Of a stretch of DNA of 64,000 nucleotides, positions 20,292 to 28,980 are shown piece by piece (position 1 is the first letter of the stretch; each line of letters starts with the position of its first letter). The notes under the pieces are model-generated. The model was not told where the DNA came from. It saw nothing but the letters and a program-made list of their open reading frames with translations, and made no database searches. The DNA comes from Bdellovibrio sp. (GTDB lineage Bacteria; Bdellovibrionota; UBA1018): positions 8,471-72,470 of the forward strand of contig JACPOE010000012.1 of the NCBI GenBank assembly GCA_016185105.1. The letters run 5' to 3'. The position numbers and the translations under genes were made by a program.

Positions 20292-21512
20292 TTACTTCTT
20301 CATCGGTGCTTTATTGGGGGCTGCCGCCGCGGGAGCAGCCTTTGCCGCCGTCGGTGCACCAACCGCTGCTGCTGCCGAAGCTGCAGGCGCCGATGGACTC
20401 GAAGCATCTGCTTTTTGCTGTGGGAGTTGAATCCCAGCTTTCTTCAGCACTTCTTCCCTGATCGTTTTCAAATGATGAGGATGCTCTTTTAGGTAGTTTC
20501 TCGCATTCTCACGCCCTTGCCCGATCCGTTCGTCTTTGTAGGTGTACCAAGTACCGCTTTTTTCAATGACATTCAGATTGGCAGCTAGATCCAAAAGGTC
20601 TCCTTCTTTGGAAATCCCTTCACCATACAAAATATCAAATTCAACTTCCTTAAACGGAGGTGCCATTTTGTTCTTAACGACTTTAACTCGGGTCCTGTTA
20701 CCGATCACATTTTCGCCGTCTTTCAAAGCCGCTATTCTTCGAATATCGAGTCGAACTGAAGAATAGAACTTCAAAGCATTTCCACCTGTCGTGGTTTCAG
20801 GATTGCCAAACATGACACCAATTTTCATTCGAATCTGATTAATAAAAATAACCAAGGTTCTGCTGCGATTGATGGTCCCTGTCAGCTTTCTCAGTGCTTG
20901 ACTCATTAGCCTAGCTTGGAGACCCATATGAGAATCTCCCATTTCACCTTCAATTTCGGCTCGCGGTACCAGAGCAGCGACTGAGTCTACAACTAGAAGA
21001 TCAATCCCACCGGAACGCACTAGCATATCTGCAATTTCCAAAGCTTGTTCACCAGTATCAGGCTGTGAAATCAAAAGATCATCGGTGCGAACTCCGAGCT
21101 TTCTTGCATAGTTCACATCTAGTGCATGCTCAGCATCCACAAAGGCAGCAACGCCTCCCTGTTTTTGAACCTCAGCCACGGCATGCAAAGTAAGGGTAGT
21201 TTTCCCAGAGGCTTCTGGCCCATAGATCTCAACAATTCTTCCTCGCGGAAACCCACCAATACCCAAAGCAATATCTAAACTCAAAGAGCCAGAAGGAACG
21301 GCACTGACATCCTGAGACACTAGAGATTCATTCATGCCCAAGCGCATGATTGATCCTTTGCCAAACTGCTTTTCAATCGCCTGAACTGCCAGATCGATTG
21401 CTTTATTTTTCTGTCCTTGTGCAGATTCTAGACCGGCACGCCTTTCCTGAACTTCCATCTTCACTTCTCCTTTGTTGATTTGGCAAAGGCTCTGACTGAG
21501 ACCTTTTTGCAC
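20292..21512 (-). CDS. recA: recombinase RecA with atypical Ala/Pro/Lys-rich C-terminal tail
   Basis: [15 protein letters not shown]...[20 protein letters not shown]. The start is possibly MEVQERR at 21458. The last 40 aa or so are [40 protein letters not shown]. Confidence 0.95.
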
Positions 21513-21740
21513 TTCTTTCTTTGCAATTTATGAAGCAACGAACGTACCACAAAAAAAAGAGCCTTCACCGAGAAAACCAGGCCCTGTAAAGAAATCCAGG
21601 CTGTAAGTCAGACTCAGTGTCTCAAAATTAGACGAAAAATTGAAAGAGTCGGTTTTCCCCCAGTTGACCAGACCAGTACCGTATCCGTTTTCAAATCCAG
21701 ATTGATGCTGTACCTCTAATTCGGATAAGCTTCCCCTAAG

Positions 21741-22985
21741 ATGAACAAAATCTTAGTTTCGGTGCTAAAAGCAAAATACGATTTTCGACCGGATGTGTTG
21801 GATATTATCATTGGCGGCAGGTCTTCCATTGACTCGGCCGAGGCCTTTCGAGTTCAAAACTTGGAGGAGACTCATCGCTTCATTGCCAGCTATGGGTATG
21901 ATCTCGATGACCCAATTGAAAAAGCTGAGGTTCTTGGAAATTACCACGAGGCTTTGAATTTCATCCGCAAGACCTTTTTACAACCCGACAACCCTGATGG
22001 CTTGAAGTTAGAAATTCCAAGGAAACTTTTAGAATTAGCAGATGTGAGAGAGCTTTTCCTTTTGGTGAGCATGAATTATCCAGGCCAGAGCTCAGACAGT
22101 GCCGGTAAACTCCTGAAAAACTGGGCTTGCAGCGTCTTGAAAGTAATGCACACAATTGCCCACATTGACAAGGACATGAGGACGTCTTACTTCCCAGATA
22201 TTCAAAAACAGATTTTAGATCGCTATTATAAATTTATTCACCGCGACGACGAGGGTCGTCTTTTTATGGGCGAGAGTCCAGATGACCCACTCAGAGTTGA
22301 ATTGGCAGCTTTTGAAACTAAACCTAAGAAATCAAGAAACTCCACTCTCCTCAAACTCCTCCACAAACCAGAGAATGTAGCTGAAGAGTTATTTGATCGG
22401 GTGGGGATTCGTTTTACCACGCAGACTCCACTTGGAACTCTGCGCGTCTTAAAATTTTTAAAAGATAAAATGATTCTCATGCCACCCAATATCAAGCCCA
22501 GCCGTTCCCGCAACACCCTCATTCAAGTAGAAAAATTCAAAGCAACACTGAAAGACGTTTTTGAAAGGGCGGAAAGGGAAGAGCTTACTGAAACACAAGT
22601 TCTTGCAGAACTCGAAGCAGCAGCACACCCCCCGGACGCAAACCCGGAAAACCCGCACTCGAGCGAATTTTACCGCTCTATTCAATTTACATCGCGACAG
22701 TTAATTAAATTAAGGAACCCCGTATTTGACGAACTGAAAGAGCTTAAGACTATTGCCCGCACGAAACCCCCTGGCGAGGAAATCACTAAAATCCTCGAAA
22801 GGATTGATTTAAAGAATATTCAGCGGGAAATCCGATTCTTCTATCCGTTTGAAGTTCAATTGATGGATCTAAAAAGTGCCGAAGAAAATGAGAAGGGACG
22901 CAGCGCCCACAGCGAGTACAAGAAAGCCCAGATTTCCACAGCAATGAAACGTGTCATGGGAAGCTTGTTTGATGGCGCTCGATAG
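21741..22985 (+). CDS. uncharacterised protein with RelA/SpoT-like nucleotidyltransferase motif (putative)
   Basis: KPKKSRNSTLLKLLHK...ENVAEELFDRVGIRFTT resembles the RelA/SpoT synthetase-fold blocks RvKs..S..rK...K...feei.D..GiRvi. Confidence 0.55.
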   Translation: MNKILVSVLKAKYDFRPDVLDIIIGGRSSIDSAEAFRVQNLEETHRFIASYGYDLDDPIEKAEVLGNYHEALNFIRKTFLQPDNPDGLKLEIPRKLLELADVRELFLLVSMNYPGQSSDSAGKLLKNWACSVLKVMHTIAHIDKDMRTSYFPDIQKQILDRYYKFIHRDDEGRLFMGESPDDPLRVELAAFETKPKKSRNSTLLKLLHKPENVAEELFDRVGIRFTTQTPLGTLRVLKFLKDKMILMPPNIKPSRSRNTLIQVEKFKATLKDVFERAEREELTETQVLAELEAAAHPPDANPENPHSSEFYRSIQFTSRQLIKLRNPVFDELKELKTIARTKPPGEEITKILERIDLKNIQREIRFFYPFEVQLMDLKSAEENEKGRSAHSEYKKAQISTAMKRVMGSLFDGAR

Positions 22986-24189
22986 CGACGTTGCTCTTTT
23001 AGGAACAGGAGTGGCCCCTCTGATTGCGGCAAACCATTTGCTAAGTCAGGGAAAGTCCGTCCTATTACTCAACCCAGATCTTGATTTTTTTCTTGAAGAC
23101 TCTGAGCTTTCACTCGATCCGCTTTTACATGGGAAGATCACCCTGGATCGGATCCAAAAGAGCACCCCTCAAAAAGCTCTTGCCACGCTGAGACCCGATT
23201 TTCCGGGTCCTTTGGAGTTCTGGACTTCCCATATGCAAAAAAAAAAACAGGGATTCCACGACCCAACAGCCCCGCATTTGCGCGAAAGGGATCGACTTTG
23301 GATCATGCCAGATCAAGGATCCCAAGACTTGAGTTGGAGCGAACTTGAAAATCTTTATGTCGAAGCAGAGGACTCTGGACTCAACCCCCAGATCCTGGAT
23401 GGTTTCAGCGCTACAAGAAAATTCCCCGGTAGCACTTCCAGTCAACCAGGCTTCCGAGGTTTGCTGATTCCCAAACTCTGCGACCTCGACATCATGCGCT
23501 ATCGTATTGGGTTGATGGAATTCATTCGAGAACGGCTAGGACCTAAGAACGTCGTTTGTGCGGTGAACCAGCTCGATTGGCTGCCCGGTGGAATTCGATT
23601 TAGGGCTGGAAAAACTGTGACCACCGCTCAATTGGGGCTCGGGCTTTTAGTTTTTTGGACCCCGCGTTTAACCAGCTGGATTTTTGGACAGAGCCGATCT
23701 TTTGAGGTGAGACCTCCCAGCCCCCTAGGTATTCGACTCTGGGAAGAATGGTCTTTAATTTCCCGTGATCCGCCAAATCCACAAGTGATTGGTAATTTTT
23801 CGGATCTGACCGTTTGGGCAGACTATGAAGGACCACCCTCAGTAGACCCCAATCGGACTTCTCGCTTAAGCGCTCTAAGACTTGGCCCGCTAGTCACTAA
23901 ACTCGCACAACATCCAACCGATAATCAGTCGAATTGGGCATCCTCAGAGTCCTTCTATTCTCTGGCCCGTCTGACTCAAGATTTCTTAAATTGGAATCAC
24001 ACAACCATTCGAGGAATGAAAGCAAAGGCGATTTTTGAATGGAAGGATGAAACTCCGTGGACTATGTGCAAGACTCACCCCCGTATCGAAATTGTCAGAG
24101 GGTGTGACGGCCCGCTGGTAGATGTGGTTCGAACGGCCAAAGCTTCCTGCGATCGAATCCTTACGGAGGACAATGAACTTCTCAATTAG
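22972..24189 (+). CDS. FAD-dependent oxidoreductase (DAO-type, HcnC/OoxB-like; putative small subunit)
   Basis: N-terminal dinucleotide-binding fold DVALLGTGVAPLIAANHLLSQGKSVLLLNPD. It overlaps the upstream gene by about 14 nt and the downstream gene by about 17 nt. Confidence 0.55.
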   Translation: MALDSDVALLGTGVAPLIAANHLLSQGKSVLLLNPDLDFFLEDSELSLDPLLHGKITLDRIQKSTPQKALATLRPDFPGPLEFWTSHMQKKKQGFHDPTAPHLRERDRLWIMPDQGSQDLSWSELENLYVEAEDSGLNPQILDGFSATRKFPGSTSSQPGFRGLLIPKLCDLDIMRYRIGLMEFIRERLGPKNVVCAVNQLDWLPGGIRFRAGKTVTTAQLGLGLLVFWTPRLTSWIFGQSRSFEVRPPSPLGIRLWEEWSLISRDPPNPQVIGNFSDLTVWADYEGPPSVDPNRTSRLSALRLGPLVTKLAQHPTDNQSNWASSESFYSLARLTQDFLNWNHTTIRGMKAKAIFEWKDETPWTMCKTHPRIEIVRGCDGPLVDVVRTAKASCDRILTEDNELLN

Positions 24190-26254
24190 AGATGGAAAAT
24201 TCGATCTTGTCATTCTTGGAGGCCCTCGAACTGAATTGTGGCCCTCCCCAGGGGTGCGCGTTCTTTCTACCTTGTGCGCAGAAGCGGGCCTGAGTGTGGG
24301 GCAATACGGAGGCGACTCGATTACAGTGCGAGGAATTGTTCCTTCATCTGGAACCGGAGGAATCGCAATTATCGAGGACAATCAGCATCGCATCCATCGG
24401 ATTCGAGCCCGCGCTATTGTCCGGGTCCTACCCGAGTCTCACTGGCCCGACCCCTTTGCTGGGTGGTTTTCTCCAGGCCTCATTCCTCTTCCCACGGCAG
24501 AAAAACTTTTTCGAGAAAGTGAGCTTCTTTGGGAACCGACCGTTGTGATCTTAGGATCAGGAAATTCTGCACTCCAATTTGGAACTTCACTCTTAGAAGC
24601 AGGCACGGAAGAGGTCCTGTCGATTGAGACCGCCTCAGGAGAGTGGGGAAAAAAGCCGATTTCGGGATGGGAAGTGCACCAACGTCGCTTTGAAATGGCC
24701 GGCGGTAAAATCCTTCAAGCGCGACCGGTGGAACTCGTCAACAAGGGGCCGATGAGCTGGCTCTTCCGGGTAAAGGACGCACAGGGAATCCGTGTCATCG
24801 AAACTACGCGAGTGGTCTCTGTCGGGCCTTTTCGAAATCAAATCGGCATTCGTGAACATCCTCCTGGATCTTGCCTCTATGAAATGGACCAAACTGCAAG
24901 CGCACTGCTCCAACAAGACGTGGAAGGTTGGCTTCTAGAAGAAGAACGCGGGAAGTGGCTTGCCGGAAAAATTGTTCGAGCGCTGGCTCTCAATCTTTCA
25001 AAAAAGAGCGAACTGGATCGCCTGGTTCGAAAAGCTCGCACCCGTTTGAAGCACTATTTTGACCACAGAGAATTTCCCCACCAGTCCACCTTTGAGGGCA
25101 AATGGCTTTCAATCGCAGAGAAAAAATTTGTTCATAATTTTGGTGGAGTCCCAAAAACAAAACAGCTGAGCGCCCCAGTGGCTTCAGTCGAATGCTTCGA
25201 AGATATCTCGTGTCAGATCTGCGAGAAAGTTTGCCCAACCAGCGCAATTTCAATCGGCCCAGAAGCCAGAAAGACCAACCAGATTCTTAAGGAAAGCCTT
25301 TGTACTGCGTGCGGCCTTTGTCTACGCACCTGTCCGAGCTCTGCGATCATCATGATCAAAGAAGCTGAAAACAAGCCCACCTCACAAATCACTTTACCGT
25401 GGTTTGGAAAACGTCCATGGCGAGTGGGAGAATCAGCAGTGTTGATGAATCGGCAGGGTGAGGCCCTCGGTTCGGCTCGAGTCAGCAAGGTCGACCCAGA
25501 AGCCGACACGCCGGAATTTTCGGCTAAGATCCGAAGCGCTGAAACCTCTCAACTTGTTCAACTTGAGGTCCCATCCCACTTAGCTTGGGAAGCTAGAGGC
25601 ATTCGAAGAAATCGAGCAAAGGCGACCGAAGATGAAGCCTACCTTTCTGCGGTCAATCGCTCTTCCTCACGAAGTGAAAAGGTTGAAGTTCTTATGAATG
25701 GCGAAAAGAGATGGGTTCGTGACCGCATTTCCATTTCTGTCGCGCTTTTTGAGACGGGGCAAAATCGTGCAGCAGACAATCTCCTCTGCAAGGATGGCTC
25801 CTGCGGCTTATGTCAAATTTCAGTGGATGGAGTTTCCAAATTGGCTTGCCAGACCAAGATTCATCGAGGGATGTCGATTCGAACGTCCGATCCGAAAGTC
25901 TTAGCAAACGAAATTGAAGACAAATCGAGCCCTCGAGGTCACTTGAAATTGGAAGGCTGGGGGCCTAGCCCGATCATCACACCTCCGCATGTCGGAGTTC
26001 AAGCAGAGCCCCCTCCTTCGAATGCGCTCTGCCCTTGCTTGGGCATCACTCTGGAAAAAGTCATTGAACGACTCAAACAAGGCGAAATTCATTCTCCCGA
26101 AGCTCTAAGGGCGATTACCCACGTCGGAGAAGGGAAATGCCATGGACAAATTTGTATGCCCGCTTTTATCCGAGCGATGAAGGAAAACGGAATCCCTGTT
26201 TCACAGTGGATCGACTGGAGATTTCCTTGGTCGGACTGGAAGGTTCATTCCTGA
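24173..26254 (+). CDS. multi-domain flavo-iron-sulfur oxidoreductase subunit (pyridine-nucleotide-disulfide-like folds, 4Fe-4S dicluster, 2Fe-2S ferredoxin-like, BFD-like 2Fe-2S)
   Basis: DLVILGG and VVILGSGNSALQFG are Rossmann motifs. CQICEKVCPTSAI and CTACGLCLRTCPSSAI form a 4Fe-4S dicluster. CKDGSCGLC...C is 2Fe-2S ferredoxin-like. CPCLGIT...GKCHGQIC is BFD-like. Confidence 0.6.
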   Translation: MNFSIRDGKFDLVILGGPRTELWPSPGVRVLSTLCAEAGLSVGQYGGDSITVRGIVPSSGTGGIAIIEDNQHRIHRIRARAIVRVLPESHWPDPFAGWFSPGLIPLPTAEKLFRESELLWEPTVVILGSGNSALQFGTSLLEAGTEEVLSIETASGEWGKKPISGWEVHQRRFEMAGGKILQARPVELVNKGPMSWLFRVKDAQGIRVIETTRVVSVGPFRNQIGIREHPPGSCLYEMDQTASALLQQDVEGWLLEEERGKWLAGKIVRALALNLSKKSELDRLVRKARTRLKHYFDHREFPHQSTFEGKWLSIAEKKFVHNFGGVPKTKQLSAPVASVECFEDISCQICEKVCPTSAISIGPEARKTNQILKESLCTACGLCLRTCPSSAIIMIKEAENKPTSQITLPWFGKRPWRVGESAVLMNRQGEALGSARVSKVDPEADTPEFSAKIRSAETSQLVQLEVPSHLAWEARGIRRNRAKATEDEAYLSAVNRSSSRSEKVEVLMNGEKRWVRDRISISVALFETGQNRAADNLLCKDGSCGLCQISVDGVSKLACQTKIHRGMSIRTSDPKVLANEIEDKSSPRGHLKLEGWGPSPIITPPHVGVQAEPPPSNALCPCLGITLEKVIERLKQGEIHSPEALRAITHVGEGKCHGQICMPAFIRAMKENGIPVSQWIDWRFPWSDWKVHS

Positions 26255-26255
26255 C

Positions 26256-27203
26256 CTAGTAATTCAGCTCCTGCAAAAATTTCTCAATCCTTAGATTCAC
26301 CAAATCAGGAAGGTCCATTTGAGGGCAATGGCTGCCATGATGAATGACCTCAAGCTGACTACGAGGAATGAGCTGCTTCATGAGCTCCTGCTGCTCCAAA
26401 GGAATCACTTTGTCCTTCTCACCCGACAAAATGAGCGTCGGAACATGAACGGTATGTAACCATGCAGTCGCATCGTAGGAGTCATAATTTTCAATCAAAT
26501 GAATCAAAATTGCGGGATCTGTATCGGCGACTTGATCGACATAAAGTTCAATATCCGCCTGCGGAGTCAAATGAGGGTTGAACCCCCCCAAACTCACCAA
26601 GGTCCTAGCAATCGGGTTTCCCCGTTGAGTCTTCCAAATGGTCCGAACAAGTTCAGGCGACTTGTCGTAAATCTTTCTTAAAAGTCGAAACCCAGCTTGC
26701 AGAGCATTATTTCTAAAAAGCGTTTCTAATGGGCGTTGAGCCGTCCCATTGGCCAAGACCATCCCCAAGACCCGTTGGGGCTGTTGGCGATAGAAATCCA
26801 ATACTACATTGACCCCCATACTATGGCCCAAAACTACTGCATCAGGAACATTCAGTTCATCTAAGACAGTGATCAGATCCCTAGCAATATTTTCAATGGT
26901 TAGGCTCGAAAGATTCTTTGGGACCTCTGAATTTTGGTGACCGCGGTAATCAAACCAAATCGTCTTATAATGGTTCTTGAAGTGTTCTATTTGATAGGTC
27001 CAATGCAGGCTGGAGCAAACCAGACCGTAGCAAAACACAAGGGGCTTACCCGTCCCCTCGACACTATAGAAAAGTTTCGTGCCGTCGAAGCTCTTTACAT
27101 ACCCGTGGGATATGGGGCGTTGGCCATTGGATCTCTCCCTCTCGGAGACACTTCTTTTTCGAGCCCCAAGAGGACGAGGTTTTGATGGTGCAGAAGTCCG
27201 CAT
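26256..27203 (-). CDS. alpha/beta-fold hydrolase
   Basis: Nucleophile elbow GHSMGV, HGW-like oxyanion region, and about 315 aa. Confidence 0.7.
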   Translation of the reverse strand: MRTSAPSKPRPLGARKRSVSERERSNGQRPISHGYVKSFDGTKLFYSVEGTGKPLVFCYGLVCSSLHWTYQIEHFKNHYKTIWFDYRGHQNSEVPKNLSSLTIENIARDLITVLDELNVPDAVVLGHSMGVNVVLDFYRQQPQRVLGMVLANGTAQRPLETLFRNNALQAGFRLLRKIYDKSPELVRTIWKTQRGNPIARTLVSLGGFNPHLTPQADIELYVDQVADTDPAILIHLIENYDSYDATAWLHTVHVPTLILSGEKDKVIPLEQQELMKQLIPRSQLEVIHHGSHCPQMDLPDLVNLRIEKFLQELNY

Positions 27204-28164: not shown

Positions 28165-28980
28165 ATGAAAAAGTTGACATTGGCTCTTGTTGGACTTTCC
28201 GTTGGCAGCATGGCTTCTGCAGGCACAATCAACATGTCCTGTACCGAAGGCACCGGACTGTTTGGCAACAAGGGTCTTCAGACTTTCAACTTGATGTTGG
28301 ATGCTTACGGCACACAGAACTTCACCAGCCCATCTGGCGCTGAATTCATCGTAGCCGTTAAAGGCGGCAAAGGCGGAGCGATGGGCGCAGGCATGGGCAT
28401 GGGACAAGCACAGGGCCAGGCTCAGGGTCAATGCGCACAAGGTCAGGTAGCTCAGATTGGCCAAGCTCAGGGCCAGGTTCAGCAGGGTCAGACTCAGGGT
28501 CAATGTGCACAGGGCCAGGTAGCTCAAGTTGGACAGGCTCAGGGCCAGGTTCAGCAGGGCCAGACCCAAGGTCAATGCGCTCAGGGACAGGTTGCCCAAG
28601 TTGGACAGGCTCAGGGCCAGGTTCAACAGGGTCAATGCGCTCAAGGACAAGCACAGGGCCAAGTCGGACAAGTCGGACAAGTTGGTCAGGTTGGCCAAGT
28701 TGGCCAAGTTGGTCAGGTCGGACAAATTGGGCAAGCTCAGCAGGATGACATGGAAGACGTCGAGCAGATCGGCGGAATGGATCAAGCAGTTGGCCAAGGT
28801 TTCGGCCCTGCCAAGATCAAGGTCACTTTCATGAAAACCAAAGCTCCTCACGCTGTGCGCTTGACTGTTCCAAGCACCCACATCTTGAAAGCTAACTCTC
28901 AGTCCAAGAAATTCCACGCTGGCTACAGCATGGGCGGCAAGCACTTTGTCACCAACTGCCAGATGACCTACATGCCCTAG
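28165..28980 (+). CDS. secreted Gln/Gly-rich tandem-repeat protein (novel; function unknown)
   Basis: Signal peptide MKKLTLALVGLSVGSMASA. Spaced RBS AGGGGA. Three to four copies of GQCAQGQVAQ[IV]GQAQGQVQQGQTQ, then (GQV)x8, then a unique C-terminal domain. A strong terminator follows. Confidence 0.75.
   Translation: MKKLTLALVGLSVGSMASAGTINMSCTEGTGLFGNKGLQTFNLMLDAYGTQNFTSPSGAEFIVAVKGGKGGAMGAGMGMGQAQGQAQGQCAQGQVAQIGQAQGQVQQGQTQGQCAQGQVAQVGQAQGQVQQGQTQGQCAQGQVAQVGQAQGQVQQGQCAQGQAQGQVGQVGQVGQVGQVGQVGQVGQIGQAQQDDMEDVEQIGGMDQAVGQGFGPAKIKVTFMKTKAPHAVRLTVPSTHILKANSQSKKFHAGYSMGGKHFVTNCQMTYMP
28426..28659 (+). repeat. 72-nt in-frame tandem repeat, about 3.2 copies, encoding GQCAQGQVAQ[I/V]GQAQGQVQQGQTQ
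   Basis: Copies at 28426-28497 and 28498-28569, a 60-nt copy at 28570-28629, and a partial copy to 28659. The copies are near-identical at DNA level with synonymous differences. Confidence 0.8.
28660..28731 (+). repeat. 9-nt in-frame microsatellite (CARGTYGGN)x8 encoding (QVG)8
   Basis: caagtcgga caagtcgga caagttggt caggttggc caagttggc caagttggt caggtcgga caaattggg. Confidence 0.85.

Follow-up and report, generated by a model that had tools for sequence, protein, structure and literature searches.

Why should a gene for a protein resembling the synthetase domain of RelA/SpoT homologues (RSH) overlap, on the same strand, two genes for what looks like a flavin- and iron-sulfur-dependent redox enzyme? 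The question is raised by three adjoining open reading frames (ORFs) in a Bdellovibrio sp. assembly (GCA_016185105.1, contig JACPOE010000012.1), analyzed within a stretch of 64,000 nucleotides (nt) that is referred to here as the window and whose coordinates are used throughout (Table 1). ORF1, ORF2, and ORF3 form a three-gene, translationally coupled operon that is confined to one Bdellovibrionota clade. Sequence and predicted structure together suggest that this clade-specific operon links an RSH-like pyrophosphokinase, which is probably active, with a dedicated flavin/iron-sulfur redox complex, a reading to which we assign a rough probability of 0.55.

The RelA/SpoT-like first gene

The three genes run head-to-tail in the ORF listing, and the start codons adopted are those in NCBI, giving proteins of 414, 405, and 693 amino acids (aa). 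A sequence-only reading had placed them between a divergent recA and a convergent hydrolase gene, with overlaps of 14 and 17 nt, and direct reading of the junctions bears this out. The ATG of ORF2 (22972) lies within ORF1, which ends with a TAG at 22983-22985, and the ATG of ORF3 (24173), preceded by GGAGG, lies within ORF2, which ends with a TAG at 24187-24189.

ORF1 is not an orphan but belongs to a named, uncharacterized family. Over its full length it scores as a member of both NCBIfam TIGR04562 (386.9 bits against a cut-off of 140; E value, 9e-116) and TIGR04552 (361.3 bits against a cut-off of 125; E value, 6e-108), with the matches covering residues 15-406. Examples of the family include Myxococcus xanthus MXAN_4858 and Bdellovibrio sp. 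NC01 DOE51_RS08710, and the groups represented are Bdellovibrionota and Myxococcales. Just two mentions were found in the literature, one in a list of mutations, where a Bdellovibrio line from an evolution experiment has an indel in a family member (PMC9888234), and the other a transposon-sequencing phenotype of MXAN_4858 that is like that of gliding-motility genes (bioRxiv 10.64898/2026.08.28.747804). The literature searched on Bdellovibrio, small alarmone synthetases (SAS), and ppGpp held nothing relevant to the family, and no discussion of its RSH nature was found there.

Profile, fold, and motif comparisons nonetheless point in one direction. Pfam RelA_SpoT (PF04607) matches each of the 40 sequences in a diverse alignment of the family at an E value of ≤0.01 (best, 1.1e-8), and six of the 10 members scanned singly pass its gathering score (35.8, 33.6, 30.7, 30.3, 29.8, and 28.6 bits); in one relative (L034), the match spans profile positions 4-111 of 113. 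An AlphaFold2 model of ORF1 has a predicted local distance difference test (pLDDT) score of 83.2 and a predicted template modeling (pTM) score of 0.71, and a Foldseek search of the PDB with it, a check that the sequence-only reading had proposed, returns Rel (including that of Mycobacterium tuberculosis), RelQ/SAS1, and RelP/SAS2 proteins for all of the top 36 matches, with probabilities up to 0.99, identifying the predicted structure as an RSH synthetase fold. ORF1 shares only ∼10-13% identity with RelQ, RelP, and Rel, and neither its sequence nor the family profile has an RSH match among PDB sequences. In an hhalign comparison with RelQ (sequence verified against PDB 5ded), the first-half alignment places the RSH motifs where they are expected, at a score that is not significant. 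The RelA/SpoT-like blocks noted in the sequence-only reading are present at residues 194-209 and 215-225, and by profile, predicted fold, and motifs ORF1 is a remote RelA/SpoT-synthetase-fold protein, resembling RelQ, RelP, and the long Rel/RelA enzymes in predicted fold and, across its family, in its Pfam domain. A search of a library of viral folds returned nothing significant, nor any close relative from a virus, and the PADLOC defense models gave no match.

The conservation of ORF1 was assessed over 40 sequences with identity down to 43%. Within the counterpart of the ATP-binding motif, K194, K197, R199, S201, and K205 are invariant, and the RelA_SpoT matches begin at this K194-K209 block; the first Arg of the motif is replaced by P195, with K194 adjacent. 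D219, G222, and R224, in the counterpart of the catalytic motif, are likewise invariant. The hhalign alignment, which is not significant by score, places K197/S201/K205 on K48/S52/K56 of RelQ and the D219 block on its DIAGLR (D72-G-R77). We take D219 as the counterpart of D72 of Bacillus subtilis RelQ and of D264 in the Rel of Streptococcus equisimilis. In the S. equisimilis enzyme, D264 and E323 are essential for synthesis, and we take ORF1 D219 and E371 to be their counterparts. The invariant residues E371 and Q373 fall within predicted strand 363-376, and H390, Y393, and K394, also invariant, within predicted helix 390-413; E371 and Q373 were assigned by inspection, by strand position, and by the Pfam coverage in L034, where the profile ends nearby. 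No variation is seen at F316, T317, R319, or Q320, and Y311 is present in at least 90% of sequences, in a block at the start of predicted strand 314-325 that was matched to RelQ YRSYH by inspection.

As judged from its sequence, ORF1 thus shares with RSH synthetases the K-x3-S-x3-K, D-x-x-G-x-R, and E-x-Q motifs, the Y-x-S strand, and the H-x-x-Y-K helix, and it has the catalytic and ATP-binding residues of the synthetase domain. Because these residues are intact, ORF1 is most likely still a pyrophosphotransferase. It differs from RSH synthetases in having Q for the final H of Y-x-S-x-H and no R-T after E-x-Q, and it adds an N-terminal helical region (approximately residues 1-120) and an ∼85-aa insertion that contains an invariant basic loop. 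Residues 251-255 of this loop are modeled with a pLDDT below 50, and the loop is a candidate substrate- or phosphate-binding element. The N-terminal HxxxHxDxD block was considered as a degenerate HD hydrolase domain, and this was dropped because it has no profile support.

The flavin and iron-sulfur pair

ORF2 codes for a protein with an FAD (flavin adenine dinucleotide)-type Rossmann N terminus, in which G11, G13, A15, N34, P35, and D38 are invariant in the family alignment. For the window copy, searches of Pfam, NCBIfam, and PDB sequences found no match. Pfam DAO (PF01266) matches 27 of 69 relatives at an E value of ≤0.01 (best, 2e-6), over profile positions 1-175 of 353 only, and one relative just reaches the gathering score (28.0 versus 27.9 bits); the DAO-type assignment made in the sequence-only reading therefore stands as an affinity of the N terminus. 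Against the PDB, the family profile finds the FAD-binding N termini of amine oxidases, GMC enzymes, and GDI with E values of 0.02-1, the matches spanning residues 4-34 (1-67 for GDI). A HMMER profile search of 1.84 billion cluster representatives recovered only 141 relatives and did not connect them to any larger family. With so few relatives and such marginal DAO and PDB matches, ORF2 represents a narrow and highly divergent FAD-Rossmann family, and it is presumed to be the substrate-oxidizing or -reducing flavoprotein subunit.

ORF3 is modeled confidently (AlphaFold2 pLDDT, 89.3; pTM, 0.89), and a word-indexed homology search scoring 8,000 candidates found 134 relatives at an E value of ≤0.001, all annotated just as ferredoxin or Fe-S proteins. 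Taken alone, its N-terminal domain (residues 1-340) has no Pfam, NCBIfam, or PDB-sequence match, and its fold assignment comes from Foldseek matches in the PDB to MerA (8k41; E value, 2e-9), lipoamide dehydrogenases, AhpF, and thioredoxin reductase (E values from 2e-9 to 4e-7). These are the best structural matches to residues 1 to ∼370, and ORF3 differs from all of them in lacking a redox-active CxxxxC disulfide (its non-ligand cysteines are Cys35 and Cys234 only), in having no profile match, and in being fused to four Fe-S clusters. Two Rossmann motifs had been proposed from the sequence, of which the second is canonical (ILGSGNSALQFG ... E152), with G128 and N131 invariant and G130, A133, and E152 in at least 90% of relatives, whereas the first reads VILGGPRTELWPSPG and is not a canonical GxGxxG. 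Both ORF2 and the N-terminal domain of ORF3 belong to flavoprotein families that are too divergent for current sequence profiles.

The cluster-binding domains of ORF3 are more readily recognized, and the ferredoxin, 2Fe-2S, and BFD-like assignments of the sequence-only reading all hold. Fer4_7 scores 33 bits for ORF3 (gathering score, 27) and matches 71 of 71 relatives, identifying a dicluster ferredoxin domain with the motifs C341-x5-C347-x2-C350-x3-C354-P, whose C-x5-C-x2-C-x3-CP spacing is atypical, and C377-x2-C380-x2-C383-x3-C387-P; all eight cysteines are invariant. Fer2_4 scores 23.0-24.7 bits (gathering score, 22.8) and matches 68 of the 71 relatives, and in the PDB the family profile also picks up the 2Fe-2S domains at the N termini of FdhA and Nqo3. 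Fer2_BFD matches 50 of the 71 (best E value, 3e-10), the window copy lying under the gathering score of 26 with 22.7 bits and an E value of 1.2e-4. ORF3 therefore carries 16 cluster cysteines in four motifs, all invariant, and presumably acts as a four-Fe-S-cluster wire from a dinucleotide site to the flavin of ORF2. The small all-beta domain between the ferredoxin domains (residues 396-480) has no Pfam match.

Distribution, linkage, and possible roles

A genome scan seeded with ORF1 gave 80 Bdellovibrionota loci, in which ORF2 and ORF3 were sought by hidden Markov model in six-frame ORFs. Both genes lie directly behind ORF1 in 30 of 30 loci of one clade with enough downstream sequence, and in a 31st locus of the clade (L024) the sequence ends inside an ORF2-like gene. 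Neither gene is present in the other 48 of the 80 loci, where ORF1 precedes the hydrolase gene or unrelated genes, and neighbor joining on ORF1 groups the loci that bear the trio into one clade. The order of the trio is kept even at 25-29% ORF3 identity, where ORF2 is barely detectable, and the median projected gap over the 30 loci is −11 nt at the ORF1-ORF2 junction and −1 nt at the ORF2-ORF3 junction. The surroundings are also conserved: a divergent recA precedes ORF1 in 52 of the 56 loci that reach far enough in that direction, and a convergent hydrolase gene is found downstream in 52 of 57, with or without ORF2 and ORF3. ORF1 is widespread and vertically inherited in Bdellovibrionota, and in most lineages it occurs without ORF2 and ORF3.

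The linkage was also approached from the other end, by three exact look-ups and one metagenome scan with ORF3. Loci selected in this way have ORF2 and ORF1 immediately upstream in all 32 cases with enough upstream sequence, including those where the upstream neighbor is pgpA/4HBT or a gamma-glutamyltranspeptidase gene rather than recA, and none of the 32 has ORF2-ORF3 without ORF1. Because the same order and tight junctions recur in the 30 clade loci and in 32/32 ORF3-selected loci, the three-gene arrangement is beyond chance, and the synteny in related genomes on which the sequence-only reading depended is present. The trio-bearing loci form one clade and the pair was never seen apart, which argues that the redox pair was gained once behind an older ORF1.

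If the operon works as we favor, ORF1, as a very divergent single-domain synthetase of RSH type, would move the beta,gamma-pyrophosphate from ATP onto the 3'-OH of an acceptor, giving an alarmone-type nucleotide. ORF2 and ORF3 would most likely form a two-subunit flavin/iron-sulfur oxidoreductase, with ORF2 as the FAD subunit acting on the substrate and ORF3 taking or giving electrons at its dinucleotide site and passing them through two [4Fe-4S] and two [2Fe-2S] clusters. The RSH-like gene would be the older resident beside recA, with the redox pair added behind it and linked since, and the redox module may feed into or depend on the ORF1 nucleotide, for example by letting redox or nutrient state gate a stress nucleotide.

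Several observations weigh against this coupling. The window copy of ORF1 scores 19.9 bits with RelA_SpoT (E value, 9e-4), under the 27-bit gathering score; the Foldseek E values of its model are weak (0.02-0.7); and the hhalign comparisons of its family with RelQ, full-length and with C-terminal halves, are not significant, because the profiles are too thin. ORF3 has a degenerate first dinucleotide motif, which leaves its cofactor content uncertain. Since ORF1 stands alone in most Bdellovibrionota, its core role does not depend on the redox pair, and since alaS, recA, the hydrolase gene, a helix-turn-helix (HTH) gene, recG, and greA are conserved as well, conserved order alone could reflect slow genome rearrangement. 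The literature searched held no biochemical data on the three families.

Much the same observations bear on the main alternative, that ORF2-ORF3 is an ordinary catabolic dehydrogenase of amines, amino acids, or other substrates, which landed once at a permissive site behind ORF1, has since been passed on by vertical inheritance, and is co-transcribed with it with no biochemical tie. The solitary ORF1 of most of the phylum, the unrelated genes downstream of it in other lineages, the strong synteny of the whole region, and a distribution that fits a single gain all agree with such independence. However, the stop/start overlaps are kept across deep divergence, the pair is never away from ORF1 despite changing upstream neighbors, and both families, with 141 and 134 relatives found, are extremely narrow, so that such enzymes have no reservoir elsewhere outside this locus. 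We regard simple co-transcription as possible, although on balance unlikely.

A second alternative keeps the biochemical tie and changes the product, with ORF1 pyrophosphorylating or nucleotidylating a non-canonical acceptor in a modified-nucleotide or small-molecule pathway, and ORF2-ORF3 oxidizing or reducing the same molecule; the product would not be (p)ppGpp. The family-specific features of ORF1 fit this, namely the NIKPSRSRN loop in the ∼85-aa insertion, HxxxHxDxD, Q in place of H, and the missing R-T after E-x-Q, as does the tight three-gene linkage. It is made improbable by the lineages, the majority, in which ORF1 functions without the redox pair, and no sequence feature points to a specific acceptor.

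The sequence-only reading had likened the redox proteins to HcnA plus HcnB, OoxA, and the sarcosine oxidase alpha subunit, which raises the alternative that ORF2-ORF3 is a rearranged and fused member of the group comprising hydrogen cyanide synthase (HcnABC), the opine oxidases OoxAB/NoxAB, heterotetrameric sarcosine oxidase, and the dye-linked L-proline dehydrogenase of archaea (PDB 1y56), oxidizing glycine, an opine, or an amino acid. The likeness holds at the level of domain types. Each pairs a FAD subunit, in the case of ORF2 one at the edge of the DAO family, with a subunit that has two dinucleotide folds, and each contains a Fer2_4-type and a BFD-like 2Fe-2S domain; the Foldseek matches of ORF3 also include the alpha chain of L-proline dehydrogenase (1y56_A; E value, 1.6e-7). 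It does not extend to sequence. Generic disulfide-reductase-type flavoproteins outscore 1y56_A, which ranks 24th; the alpha-type domain of ORF3 is not recognized by sequence as HcnB/OoxA/SoxA or Pyr_redox_2; and no NCBIfam, Pfam, or PDB-sequence link to the HcnABC, OoxAB, and sarcosine oxidase families was found for ORF2 or the ORF3 N terminus. No match was obtained by tblastn with ORF3 (E value limit, 0.001) or ORF2 (0.1) against 72,556 plasmids, among which the ooxAB Ti plasmids are presumed to be included. Moreover, the accessory domains of ORF3 are fused in one 693-aa chain in a different order, with a 2x[4Fe-4S] ferredoxin and a beta domain in addition and a degenerate first dinucleotide motif. 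Membership in this group is highly improbable.

That ORF1 is instead a toxic SAS (toxSAS) with ORF2/ORF3 as its antitoxin or immunity partner, the toxin-like option of the sequence-only reading, finds an echo in the overlap of ORF1 with ORF2, since toxSAS genes (FaRel, FaRel2, PhRel, and CapRel) are RSH synthetase-fold genes that occur in overlapping two- or three-gene operons (PMC7229694), but ORF1 is single-copy and vertically inherited in a housekeeping neighborhood across the phylum, its distribution is not that of a mobile element, it has no downstream partner in 48 of 80 loci, its partners where present are large redox enzymes and not small antitoxins, and it has neither a match among the defense models nor a close viral relative, which makes a toxin extremely improbable.

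Returning to the RSH-redox coupling, its pairing of genes is undescribed as far as found, and the sequence-only reading had not recognized the arrangement. ORF1 itself is in a named family and mostly occurs without the redox pair, which is specific to one clade. A broader and more doubtful form of the reading would make TIGR04552/TIGR04562 an uncatalogued, phylum-wide RelA/SpoT branch in Bdellovibrionota and Myxococcota that makes an alarmone or a new pyrophosphorylated nucleotide, with one Bdellovibrionota clade wiring the enzyme to a dedicated flavin/four-cluster Fe-S complex not known otherwise, through which the redox state of the cell or a particular oxidizable metabolite gates the signal directly or modifies it chemically; were this correct, it would be a redox-coupled alarmone module without described precedent. 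The ORF1 family does not figure among the RSH proteins of the 2011 census, where Rel is the sole entry for Bdellovibrio bacteriovorus, a genome that was not checked here for an ORF1-family member (PMC3153485 supplement). Were ORF1 active, lineages of predatory and social 'delta-proteobacteria' would possess a second enzyme of the stringent-response type, one absent from at least this census, and starvation and life-cycle signaling in them would then have to be reinterpreted. Since the gene is obligately paired with those of a private redox complex, a link from redox or nutrient state to nucleotide signaling becomes open to concrete testing; if the link is co-transcription only, the outcome is a better annotation of three poorly annotated genes.

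Flanking genes and other features

Table 1. Features of the three-gene locus and its immediate context (window coordinates)
Feature	Position	Strand	Description
ORF1, 414 aa	21741-22985	+	TIGR04562/TIGR04552 member; divergent protein of predicted RSH synthetase fold
ORF1 H137-x3-H141-x-D143-x-D145	22149-22175	+	Invariant; helical region before the catalytic core
ORF1 K194-P-K-K197-S-R199-N-S201-T-L-L-K205-L-L-H-K209	22320-22367	+	Counterpart of RSH ATP-binding R-x-K-x3-S-x3-K
ORF1 D219-R-V-G222-I-R224	22395-22412	+	Counterpart of RSH catalytic D-x-x-G-x-R (Mg2+-binding Asp)
ORF1 basic loop N250-I-K-P-S-R-S-R-N258	22488-22514	+	Invariant; within the family-specific insertion
ORF1 Y311-R-S-I-Q-F-T-S-R-Q320	22671-22700	+	Counterpart of RSH Y-x-S-x-H acceptor-nucleotide strand
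ORF1 E371-V-Q373 ... H390-S-E-Y393-K394	22851-22922	+	Counterpart of RSH E-x-Q-x-R-T strand (catalytic Glu) and H-x-x-Y-K helix
ORF2, 405 aa	22972-24189	+	Clade-limited FAD-Rossmann protein, marginal to the DAO family
ORF2 residues 5-38, SDVALLGTGVAPLIAANHLLSQGKSVLLLNPDLD	22984-23085	+	Dinucleotide (FAD)-binding beta-alpha-beta motif
ORF3, 693 aa	24173-26254	+	Multi-center electron-transfer protein
ORF3 residues 1-335 (to ∼370)	24173-25177	+	Two-dinucleotide-binding flavoprotein fold of pyridine-nucleotide-disulfide oxidoreductase type; predicted structure only
ORF3 residues 124-152, VVILGSGNSALQFGTSLLEAGTEEVLSIE	24542-24628	+	Canonical GxGxxA dinucleotide-binding motif with terminal acidic residue
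ORF3 residues 341-387	25193-25333	+	2x[4Fe-4S] ferredoxin domain (Pfam Fer4_7)
ORF3 residues 396-480	25358-25612	+	Small all-beta domain; predicted strands 403-478, high confidence
ORF3 residues 504-573	25682-25891	+	Fer2_4-type [2Fe-2S]; C539-x4-C544-x2-C547-x11-C559, Cys invariant
ORF3 residues 618-670	26024-26182	+	BFD-like [2Fe-2S]; C620-x-C622 ... C656-x4-C661, Cys invariant
GATTGATGCTG-N10-TTCGGATAAGC	21700-21730	+	Candidate ORF1/operon promoter block, 10-40 nt 5' of the ORF1 ATG
recA	20292-21512	-	Divergent, upstream of ORF1; context, outside the operon
Alpha/beta-hydrolase gene	26256-27203	-	Convergent, downstream of ORF3; context; Pfam Abhydrolase_1 on homologues

In the ORF listing, alaS lies beyond recA on the upstream side, and the true start of recA is probably downstream of the listed GTG. 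On the other side, the stop codon of the hydrolase gene starts 2 nt past the end of ORF3, and an HTH gene and then recG follow. Where it is present in the scanned loci, the hydrolase gene is always convergent and nearly abuts the end of ORF1 or ORF3, and it is followed by the HTH gene, recG, and greA. The upstream side is more variable. In L003, L006, L081, L082, and one JGI contig, pgpA, often with a 4HBT thioesterase gene, lies between recA and ORF1 or replaces recA, and in one locus cinA joins pgpA/4HBT; in the window, recA directly adjoins ORF1.

Sister lineages without ORF2 and ORF3 have other genes behind ORF1. At L045 (9227-11518), these code for a small membrane protein and a 611-aa protein that, by eye, may be a carbamoyltransferase (NodU/CmcH-like), and at L032 (9201-13274), there are several small ORFs for putatively secreted or periplasmic proteins, one with a putative CxxCH heme motif. 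Four loci (L020, L018, L081, and P0029) carry the labels 'candidate division WWE3', 'Pseudomonadota', 'Cryobacterium sp.', and 'Methylotenera sp.' yet have typical Bdellovibrionota synteny, and these labels are probably errors of metagenome-assembled genome binning or labeling.

A consensus scan found no promoter or terminator above shuffled expectation, and no internal terminator signal above chance. The GATTGATGCTG-N10-TTCGGATAAGC block is common to L001 and L010 in an alignment of the intergenic region, and a promoter role is proposed for it tentatively, because the sigma-70 consensus scan made no call there. A second block of ∼19 nt, AAGCAACGAACGTACCACA, at 21533-21552 just upstream of recA, is kept as GAGCAnnGACCGTACCATA in six of six aligned loci and is a candidate recA regulatory site. 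The LexA box of the B. bacteriovorus type is TTACN3GTAA, of which there is no occurrence in the whole window.

Farther downstream, a 271-aa ORF at 28165-28980 (plus strand) has a signal-peptide-like N terminus and Gln/Gly-rich tandem repeats. The repeats, at 28411-28735, consist of a 72-nt unit present 3.1 times and a 9-nt unit present 8.4 times, and long ORFs are open on both strands across them.

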